A DNA stretch of 64,000 nucleotides. Source: Eledone cirrhosa (taxonomy: Eukaryota). The stretch is taken from NCBI GenBank assembly GCA_964016885.1, contig OZ024742.1, forward strand, positions 80,104,001-80,168,000. The letters are read 5' to 3'. Both the position numbers and the translations under genes were made by a program. Position 1 is the first letter of the stretch; each line of letters starts with the position of its first letter. Positions 57,021 to 59,230 of this stretch are shown piece after piece. A model generated the notes under the pieces. It made no database searches. It saw nothing but the letters and a program-made list of their open reading frames with translations, and was not told where the DNA came from.

Positions 57021-59230
57021 TATTTCGTTTCTGATTTTGTTTAGCAAGATTCTTTATCTTAAATCTTGTGTTGAAACCGATATTGTTATACTTTGGGAGG
57101 GTCATGTTGCCAATAAGAAACACACGCACCAGTTGTTTCACTTCAATTTATTATAATAAATTTATAATAAATTTATAAATTTATAAATTTCTCGTTGGTT
57201 GGTTGGTTCCACAACCAGATAGTTGTTTATATATTGTCATAGTTCTTTCGTCACACACTCTGTGACCTCTTCAGTGACTGGGGATTCCTTTCTTTGTTTC
57301 TGTGCCTCTCCTTTGTTCTGTCCTACGCCATTTTGTTTCTATGTATGTGTTGTGTGCTCAGTCTGCGCATGCGCCACATTCGTCGGTGTTGATGGTATTG
57401 GTGTAAACTCGGGACGAGGCACATTCTTTTATGAAGTGTAGTTGTCGAGATGTTATGGTTTTTCGTAGACAACAGAACAAGGTGGTTTTCAGTATCTTGT
57501 TAGCCTGGCTAAGGCTTACGATATTTCGTTTCTGAATTTGTTTAGCAAGATTCTTTATCTGAAATCTTGTGTTGAAACCGATATTGTTATACTTTGGGAG
57601 GGTCATGTTGCCAATAAGAAACACACGCACCAGTACCTTTCACTTCAATTTATTATAATAAATTTATAATAAATTTATAAATTTATAAATTTCTGTTTGG
57701 CTGGTTGGTTTCACAACCAGATAGTTGTTTATATATTGTTATAGTTCTTTCGTCGCACACTTTGTGACCTCTTCAGTGACTGGAAATTCCTTTCTTTGTT
57801 TCTGTGCCTCGCCTTTGTTCTGTCCTACGCAATGTTGTTTCTGTGTGTGTGTTGTGTGCTCAGTCTGCGCATGCGCCCCATGCGTCGGTGTTGATGGGGT
57901 TGGTGTAAACTCGGGACGAGGCACATTCTTTTATGAAGTGTAGTTGTCGAGATGTTATGGTTTTTCGTGGACAACAGAACATGGCGTAGGACAGAACAAA
58001 GGAGAGGCTCAGAAACAAAGAAAGGAATCCCCAGTCACTGAAGAGGTCACATAGTGTGTGACGAAAGATCTATGACAATATATAAACAACTATCTGGTTG
58101 TGGAACCAACCAACCAACCAGAAATTTATAAATTTATAAATTTATTATAAATCTATTATAATAAATTGAAGTGAAAGCAACTGCTGCGTGTGTTTCTTAT
58201 TGGCAACATGACCCTCCCAAAGTATAACAATATCGGTTTCAACACACGATTTCAGATAAAGAATCTTGCTAAGCAAATTCAGATGGGAAATATCGTAAGC
58301 CTTAGCCAGGCTGACAAGATACTGAAAACCACCATTTTCTCTTGTCTACGAAAAACCATAACATCTCGACAACTACACTTCATAAAAGAATCTGCCTCGT
58401 CCCGAGTTTACACCAACACCATCAACACCGACGTATGTGGCGCATGCGCAGACTCAGCACACAACACACAGAAACAAAATGGCGTAGGACAGAACAAAGG
58501 AGAGGCACAGAAACAAAGAAAGGAATCCCCAGTCACTGAAGAGGTCACAGAGTGTGTGACGAAAGAACTATGACAATATATAAACAACTATCTGGTTGTG
58601 GAACCAACCAAACAACGAGAAATTTATAAATTTATAAATTTATTATAAATTTATTATAATAAATTGAAGTGAAAGCAACTGGTGCGTGTGTTTCTTATTG
58701 GCAACACGACCCTCCCAAAGTATAACAATATCGGTTTCAACACACGATTTCAGATAAAGAATCTTGCTAAACAAATTCAGAAACGAAATATCGTAAGCCT
58801 TAGCCAGGCTAACAAGATACTGAAAACCACAATGTTCTGTTGTCTACGAAAAACCATAACATCTCGACAACTACACTTCATAAAAGAATGTGCCTCGTCC
58901 CGAGTTTACACCAACACCATCAACACCGACGTATGTGGCGCATGCGCAGACTGAGACACAACACACACACATAAACAAAATGGCGTAGGACAGAACAAAG
59001 GAGAGGCACAGAAACAAAGAAAGGAATCCCCAGTCATTGAAGAGGTCACAGAGTGTGTGACGAAAGAACTATGACAATATATAAACAACTATATGGTTGT
59101 GGAACCAACCAACCAACGAGAAATTTATAAATTTATAAATTTATTATAAATTTATTATAATAAATTGAAGTGAAAGCAACTGGTTCGTGTGTTTCTTATT
59201 GGCAACATGACCCTCCCAAAGTATAACAAT
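57021..59230. repeat. Tandem/inverted array of ~500-bp PLE-derived units (about 2 on minus, 2.5 on plus) with five hammerheads
   Basis: Periods are ~498-502 bp, with a strand switch at ~57981. Units match 12215-12573 plus ~150 bp extra. Hammerheads at 57236-57278(-), 57738-57780(-), 58034-58076(+), 58532-58574(+) and 59033-59075(+). (TA)n flanks. Confidence 0.93.
58034..58076 (+). ncRNA. Minimal type-I hammerhead with palindromic stem III
   Basis: GTCA CTGAAGA G GTCAC atagtgt GTGAC GAAA GATC TA TGAC. Confidence 0.75.

Follow-up and report, generated by a model that had tools for sequence, protein, structure and literature searches.

A two-armed tandem array of a putative non-autonomous Penelope-like unit with minimal hammerhead motifs in Eledone cirrhosa

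Described systems and layout of the array

The described systems closest to the locus reported here are the non-LTR retrozymes of animals and the Penelope-like elements (PLEs), with whose pseudo-LTRs (pLTRs) retrozymes share sequence. In Xenopus, 24 of 57 retrozyme families were reported to match known elements; 21 of the 22 matched elements were PLEs, with the matches at their termini, and one of nine dimers was cleaved (Li, Clavereau and Pollet 2026, bioRxiv 10.64898/2026.07.22.740005). The proposal that PLEs mobilize animal retrozymes is based on their co-occurrence and on similarity to pLTRs, and its authors leave the mechanism open (bioRxiv 10.64898/2026.07.22.740005; PMC7229834); unit sizes are given as 150–450 bp in PMC7229834 and as 51–972 bp by Li et al. 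Insertions of PLEs have their own hallmarks, described in PMC8557442 as partial tandems, an inverted 5′-truncated arm, a tail at one end, and a bias toward (TA)n, and pLTRs were found to suffice for PLE mobilization in trans (PMC3846280). For an anole PLE, a stretch within the first 172 nt of its ORF is the minimal template, reverse transcription starts at two internal sites that are not homologous to the target, and both strands are cut; uncleaved RNA is used and hammerhead mutants insert normally, showing that cleavage is not needed (PMC11167929). When minimal PLE hammerheads were assayed in vitro, single motifs showed no cleavage and dimers and trimers showed low cleavage (PMC4209133). An internal promoter has been reported for Drosophila Penelope (PMC2377424).

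In an AT-rich 64-kb window of the E. cirrhosa genome (64,000 nucleotides, the whole stretch of DNA analyzed, to which all positions refer), we identified an array (57020–59232; 2.2 kb) of ~4.4 copies of a ~500-base unit within a (TA)n tract. Two head-to-head arms, of 965 nt on the minus strand and 1255 nt on the plus strand, diverge from 57978–57984, which agrees with the initial annotation of a ~500-bp array of about two minus-strand and 2.5 plus-strand units diverging from ~57981; the arms hold 1.9 and 2.5 units. Unit length is 498–502 nt, pairwise identity between units is 93.7–98.0%, and the GC content of the array is low (0.38–0.39). Among 23 sequencing runs listed as sharing words with 56600–57520, three runs of a single sample, possibly the source of the assembly, contain 0.70–0.72 of those words, and no RNA run is among those listed. 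The features of the array are as follows.

56974..57023: left (TA)n target tract
57020..57984, minus strand: left (inverted) arm, 1.9 units (M0, M1, and M2)
57020–57379, minus strand: terminal unit M2 of the left arm, ending at +86 of the ORF
57236..57278, minus strand: minimal hammerhead motif of M2, intact
57380–57881, minus strand: full unit M1 of the left arm
57382..57606, minus strand: PLE ORF codons 1–75 of M1
57738..57780, minus strand: minimal hammerhead motif of M1, with mismatches in helix I and helix II
57882–57984, minus strand: partial unit M0 of the left arm
57978..57984: head-to-head junction, a 7-nt microhomology common to both arms
57978..59232, plus strand: right arm, 2.5 units (P1, P2, and P3)
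57978–58434, plus strand: unit P1 of the right arm, 5′-truncated by 45 nt
58034..58076, plus strand: minimal type I hammerhead motif of P1, intact, with a perfect helix III palindrome and a predicted cut after 58072
58208..58432, plus strand: PLE ORF codons 1–75 of P1
58428..58440, plus strand: unit junction (ORF codon 75 / 3′ UTR), also at 58932/3, 57881/2, and 57379/80
58435–58932, plus strand: unit P2 of the right arm
58440..58449, plus strand: GC-rich palindrome just inside the unit start, the unit beginning 5 nt before it
58532..58574, plus strand: minimal hammerhead motif of P2, intact, with a predicted cut after 58570
58706..58930, plus strand: PLE ORF codons 1–75 of P2, with ACG as the start codon
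58933–59232, plus strand: unit P3 of the right arm, ending at +26 of the ORF
59033..59075, plus strand: minimal hammerhead motif of P3, with core change C3>U
59229..59401: right (TA)n target tract

Penelope-like origin of the unit

Each unit resembles the 3′ end of a long PLE copy elsewhere in the window.

9540..12575, plus strand: broken, 5′-truncated PLE of the same family as the array, in (TA)n and ending at +86; the layout is RT, CX4CxxC linker, GIY-YIG EN, stop at 12112, 3′ UTR, hammerhead at 12316–12358, and ORF start at 12490

The units are 93.9–96.6% identical, over 300–361 nt, to the last 361 nt of this copy (12215–12575), extend 141 nt beyond its end, and then rejoin the 3′ UTR, as had been noticed before (with an extension given as ~150 bp); the motif at which the 3′ UTR is rejoined occurs five times in the window (four times in the array, where the unit junction occurs four times, and once in the PLE) and in none of 100 shuffles. 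Of the coordinates first assigned to the PLE copy (9540–12573), the start holds and the end does not, since the copy reaches 12575. The array contains no RT or EN sequence by tblastn, in line with the earlier claim. A unit corresponds to the contiguous pLTR–ORF junction region, comprising the terminal portion of the 3′ UTR, a minimal hammerhead motif, the 5′ leader, and codons 1–75; about 3 kb of RT/EN sequence would be absent between successive units, judging from a relative with an ORF of 1047 aa and from 100 nt of missing 3′ UTR. Taken together with the ORF start of the family, these data support the proposal of an internally deleted (equivalently, excerpted) mini-PLE that would be non-autonomous. 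An origin of the unit junction by splicing was rejected, as the unit retains the GT and no AG precedes the rejoin point in either the PLE copy or a diverged PLE family at 31.7 kb.

The long copy encodes RT followed by a GIY-YIG EN in one ORF (41% and 36% identity along residues 261–1043 of P0018); Pfam matches to GIY-YIG (E 9e-4) and RVT_1 (E 0.04) were both below their cut-offs. Upstream of the GIY-YIG motifs it carries a CX4CxxC, which falls under the CX2-5CxxC linker definition of the Neptune/Nematis type (PMC8557442). The RT relatives carry PPK[FY], RW, and DKS motifs and depart from GxK[FY]/DKG; the source of the best of them, which is 72% identical, labels it an Octopus vulgaris protein, pointing to a probable octopod host. 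The copy begins inside the ORF, contains stops at 10716 and 11992 and frameshifts near 9910 and 11185, and has a U4>G change in the hammerhead core. It is a dead sibling that shows the family and not the working parent of the array, so that the idea of an identifiable parent in the same window did not survive. The diverged family is represented by a decayed 3′ end (31560–31960, plus strand; ~77% identity in matched parts) with TA repeats at its end, a degenerate hammerhead, and a degenerate ORF start. Fragments of another GIY-YIG-type EN C-terminus, 57–60% alike, are located at 7574–7996 (plus strand), 59613–60512 (minus strand; only 400 nt to the right of the array), and ~41065–41313, and 205–4465 (minus strand) contains broken ORFs whose motifs resemble those of a Helitron Rep-helicase.

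The frame of 75 codons is the genuine N-terminus (ORF start) of this PLE family, as first suggested. A search of the 75-aa remnant against 1.84 billion representatives returned three matches (up to 49% identity; best E 4e-13), and two of 27 long RT relatives matched it, namely P0018 and, weakly, P0010; the alignment to residues 6–69 of P0018, a 1047-aa RT–EN protein found independently via RT, scored 22.5 bits, compared with a best score of 8.7 in 1000 shuffles. Among 11 related loci, an N-terminal profile matched L001 and L002 and not the other nine, a hammerhead core was found only in L001 and L011, and L001 alone presented the full layout, with the EN end followed by a minimal hammerhead at 3237, an ATG at 3310, and a homologous N-terminus (iE 1e-18). 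In another pair of relatives, the C-terminal peptide of P0030 is the start of the RT protein P0003 and both are on same-sized contigs, suggesting one split ORF. Word-based searches found no match for the 75-aa remnant in longer proteins or for the 121-aa junction read-through among proteins, and the ESM Atlas search gave no usable match. The peptide LHFIKEC had been likened to an HxxFLxxC-type N-terminal signature; a conserved motif does exist in the relatives, in the form QxxF[IM]xxC, and in the array it begins at the Q before LHF (the phrase HxxFL is absent from PMC8557442). The metagenome contigs of related PLEs include L001 (1–3441), L004, and L005, with terminal repeats of 99–123 nt and units of 3.3–3.5 kb, as would be expected from collapsed tandems or circles, and L002 contains a 1632-codon frame with internal 105-nt repeats.

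The frame had been described as open in every complete copy; all three complete copies are indeed free of stops and frameshifts, but the ATG is replaced by ACG in one of the three (58706), and with 18 changes across the codon copies the probability of no stop is 0.48, so that the absence of stops is uninformative. Thirteen of these changes are non-synonymous and five synonymous, compared with an expectation of 78% non-synonymous; the retained codons show no sign of selection, and a functional micro-protein was rejected on the basis of the neutral changes and the lost ATG. The GC-rich palindrome at 58440..58449 is largely kept in the diverged family at 31.7 kb. By its consensus, we take this palindrome to resemble an NRF1-type promoter site.

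All five hammerhead cores first annotated in the array are present, although only three of the five satisfy a strict descriptor of the minimal hammerhead (which requires the core boxes, at least 5 bp in helix II, at least 4 bp in helix I, and NUH), given the C3>U change in P3 and the helix I and II mismatches in M1; the descriptor had no hits in 5000 unit shuffles or 30 window shuffles. Rfam at gathering thresholds gave no match in the window, which is a blank and not evidence against the motif, and no hammerhead match to unit P2 at E ≤ 10. The motifs share with the minimal hammerheads of metazoan PLEs, as described in PMC4209133, a helix II of 6–7 bp, a helix I of 4 bp, an extra base between 9 and 10.1, a G10.1–C11.1 pair, and a near-palindromic helix III; they differ from them in that the helix III palindrome (15.2–16.2), perfect in P1, contains two central A–A mismatches in the other four copies. 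The dimeric helix III did not form when the array hammerheads were cofolded. The hammerhead of L001 has the same minimal architecture with different stems; the 31.7-kb copy was rejected as a source of covariation for helix II, because its stem is decayed. If the array hammerheads work at all, they would do so weakly and as dimers, which would allow multimeric RNA to survive for copying.

Other hammerhead-bearing sequences are present in the window. A dimer of a 468-nt unit (22588–23520, plus strand; units 98.7% identical) lies in (TA)n and carries an intact type I hammerhead in each unit (22792 and 23260; Rfam HH9 E 4.5e-5, below gathering); it matches nothing else in the window, and kinship with the array was rejected. 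A long inverted repeat (53338–53924; 88%), whose arm contains a hammerhead core at 53672 that has its mirror image near 53590, is related to 9128–9523 and 46416–46775, and its ribozyme is 73% identical over 55 nt to that of the dimer; it probably represents head-to-head termini of another family. Further hammerhead-like cores were found at 19551–19735, 62649 (minus strand), and 13465 (minus strand); the one in the first region, at 19628 (minus strand), lies within a short inverted repeat and passes the strict descriptor. Hammerhead-bearing PLE remnants, several of them unrelated within 64 kb, look commonplace in the E. cirrhosa genome.

Insertion of the array and competing explanations

The ends of the array fall at positions characteristic of its family. 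M2 and the long PLE copy share a 3′ end at +86 from the ATG, the diverged family ends at the equivalent position (12480–12575 matches 31866–31959), and P3 ends at +26. Both arm ends are ATAT, of which the 227-nt ORF part contains only two sites (+23 and +83); ends called next to (TA)n carry an uncertainty of a few bases. At the arm junction, a microhomology of at least 7 nt has a chance of 0.0016 under random pairings. Because the +86 and +26 ends, the (TA)n target, and the microhomology junction are hallmarks of PLE insertion, insertion by the RT/EN of the family, with mobilization in trans, is likely. The explanation that we prefer, and consider somewhat probable overall, is that a ~500-nt non-coding mini-PLE was inserted here in tandem and inverted copies. 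The RT/EN of an intact relative within the family likely did the copying in trans, and the template was probably multimeric RNA, transcribed from an older array at another site and left uncleaved. The EN would nick both strands of the (TA)n, priming of one cDNA at +86 and of another at +26 would follow, and microhomology would join the two cDNAs at their far ends. Since the palindrome and the ORF start are retained and the ends are of the PLE type, the unit can be read as the cis kit of the family moved in trans; the retained codons would be kept not as protein but as an RNA site for PLE protein binding and the start of reverse transcription, and the need of the anole PLE for the first 172 nt of its ORF would explain why a non-coding satellite keeps an ORF start. 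Guidance of priming at +26 and +86 by ATAT is something that we can only infer, because the start sites of the anole PLE are not homologous to its target. The 60-nt spacing of these two positions counts against insertion in trans, the usual tail being 30–40 nt, and a further caveat is that the anole enzyme belongs to another PLE clade.

Variation among the units bears on the template. In one column, P2, P3, and M2 share a variant that differs from P1, M1, and the PLE; under a single template with independent later changes, three shared changes arose in 0.55% of simulations (P = 0.0055), and a second shared column (M1 and M2) was within chance. The first column leans toward a heterogeneous linear template, although, being one column, it could also result from arm-to-arm gene conversion or sequence error. 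Most differences between units are private to one unit, and private changes (multi-base changes included) are three times more frequent in the inner units (57380–58434; 33 in 1048 nt) than in the outer ones (12 in 1158 nt; P = 0.0005); over all copies there are 29 transversions and 24 transitions, and M1 and P1 share none of their changes. Insertion in trans does not account for this inner excess; possible causes are sequence error and error-prone repair around the middle of the inverted repeat.

Among the alternatives, a non-LTR retrozyme cycle, in which hammerhead-to-hammerhead cleavage releases a 498–501-nt monomer that a host ligase circularizes and the PLE RT copies into multimers, is doubtful but deserves the most weight. 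The predicted cuts are 498 and 501 nt apart, a spacing that any tandem would give; P1 and P2 are consecutive with intact motifs, as in the working definition of Li et al., tandem copies permit dimeric cleavage (PMC4209133), and repeats in coral, mussel, and axolotl yield circles (PMC7229834). Circularized units fold somewhat more stably than shuffles (−0.19 to −0.20 kcal/mol per nt; z of −2.9 and −3.4; 52–53% paired), but far more weakly than the circularized 468-nt dimer at 22.6 kb (−0.32 kcal/mol per nt; z of −9.0; 66% paired), which by sequence comes much closer to a classical non-LTR retrozyme and would be a better candidate than the array. Also against such a cycle are the poor in vitro cleavage of minimal PLE hammerheads (PMC4209133), the eight of nine Xenopus dimers without cleavage (bioRxiv 10.64898/2026.07.22.740005), and the departure of the units from a star-like pattern at the column described above (P = 0.0055 under a single template). 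Given that a PLE RT used uncleaved RNA, making cleavage unnecessary (PMC11167929), a circle or rolling-circle step would, by analogy, not be required for the origin of the array.

It is quite unlikely that the junction arose only once, by template switch, as a short circle in one PLE insertion, or by local pLTR–ORF duplication, and was never part of a mobile family. The array unit is present at a single locus in the 64-kb window, which is compatible with such an event, as are the mostly private differences between units, the frequency of microhomology-mediated internal deletions in PLE copies (PMC3846280), and the local tandem amplification of a PLE terminus proposed by Li et al. (bioRxiv 10.64898/2026.07.22.740005); no match to the junction motif was found in JGI metagenome contigs, a dataset that is uninformative for an animal genome. 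However, purely local unequal crossing-over does not yield PLE-type outer ends in (TA)n together with the junction in both arms, and a junction-bearing RNA must predate the insertion. An assembly artefact (a fold-back chimera or collapsed repeat) is very improbable, for although tandem and inverted PLE insertions are hard for assemblers (PMC8557442) and the excess of changes near the inverted-repeat centre could be sequence error, the units are 2–6% different with private substitutions, the arms are not mirror copies, and the array ends and junction obey PLE rules.

Comparison with known systems

Published work already covers the derivation of animal retrozymes from PLEs, tandem PLEs that are non-autonomous, and insertions with inverted arms. 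In a literature search covering titles and the beginnings of abstracts, with most subscription journals outside its scope, neither an octopus Penelope hammerhead element nor an internally deleted tandem PLE like the array was found. The array leaves the known picture unchanged and is a neat example of known Penelope satellites; its value is its closeness to a helper family, with which it shares an insertion end, making a ready test pair. The end shared with the long copy of its own family and the retention of the anole-type cis region provide sequence-level support for mobilization in trans. We consider unlikely a bolder reading, that of a retrozyme caught at birth, in which the array would belong to a genome-wide mobile family ~5% diverged from the PLE, its boundaries would define a minimal cis kit (promoter-like palindrome, hammerhead, and RT start sites), and 500-nt circles would be copied by the cognate RT; if true, the matched helper/satellite pair would permit the first direct test of PLEs mobilizing animal retrozymes and would show whether the RT copies circles or linear multimers.

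Compared with non-LTR retrozymes, as described in PMC7229834 and bioRxiv 10.64898/2026.07.22.740005, the array is alike in its tandem units of a few hundred bases, the single type I hammerhead in each, the lack of RT, the low GC content, and the PLE pLTR sequence; it contains at least two consecutive hammerhead units (P1 and P2), encodes no mobilizing protein, and has a unit length (498–502 nt) above the range of PMC7229834 and inside that of Li et al. It differs from them in its minimal rather than canonical ribozyme, its weak self-pairing, its 94–97% identity to a PLE family, its 75 ORF codons, and its head-to-head arm, and it is known at the level of DNA sequence. With MRC1 of Chlamydomonas (PMC8557442, PMC9940879), the array shares 3′-end similarity to an autonomous family, multicopy head-to-tail insertion, and no coding capacity, and its insertion structure is of the PLE type, with head-to-tail copies, an inverted arm, a family-specific 3′ end, and a microsatellite target; unlike MRC1, it is from an animal, belongs to a C-terminal-EN family, carries a hammerhead motif, and is known from one locus in the window. 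It resembles canonical tandem and inverted PLE insertions (PMC8557442, PMC3846280, PMC11167929) in the inverted 5′-truncated arm, the two 3′ ends in the ORF start, the AT-rich target, and the overlap at the inverted junction, and differs from them in being built throughout from one and the same deleted unit, in lacking a full-length ORF, and in the 60-nt distance between the two ends. Judged by these likenesses, the array appears to work like a non-autonomous PLE; as a non-LTR retrozyme it qualifies by sequence, but not yet by the definition based on RNA.
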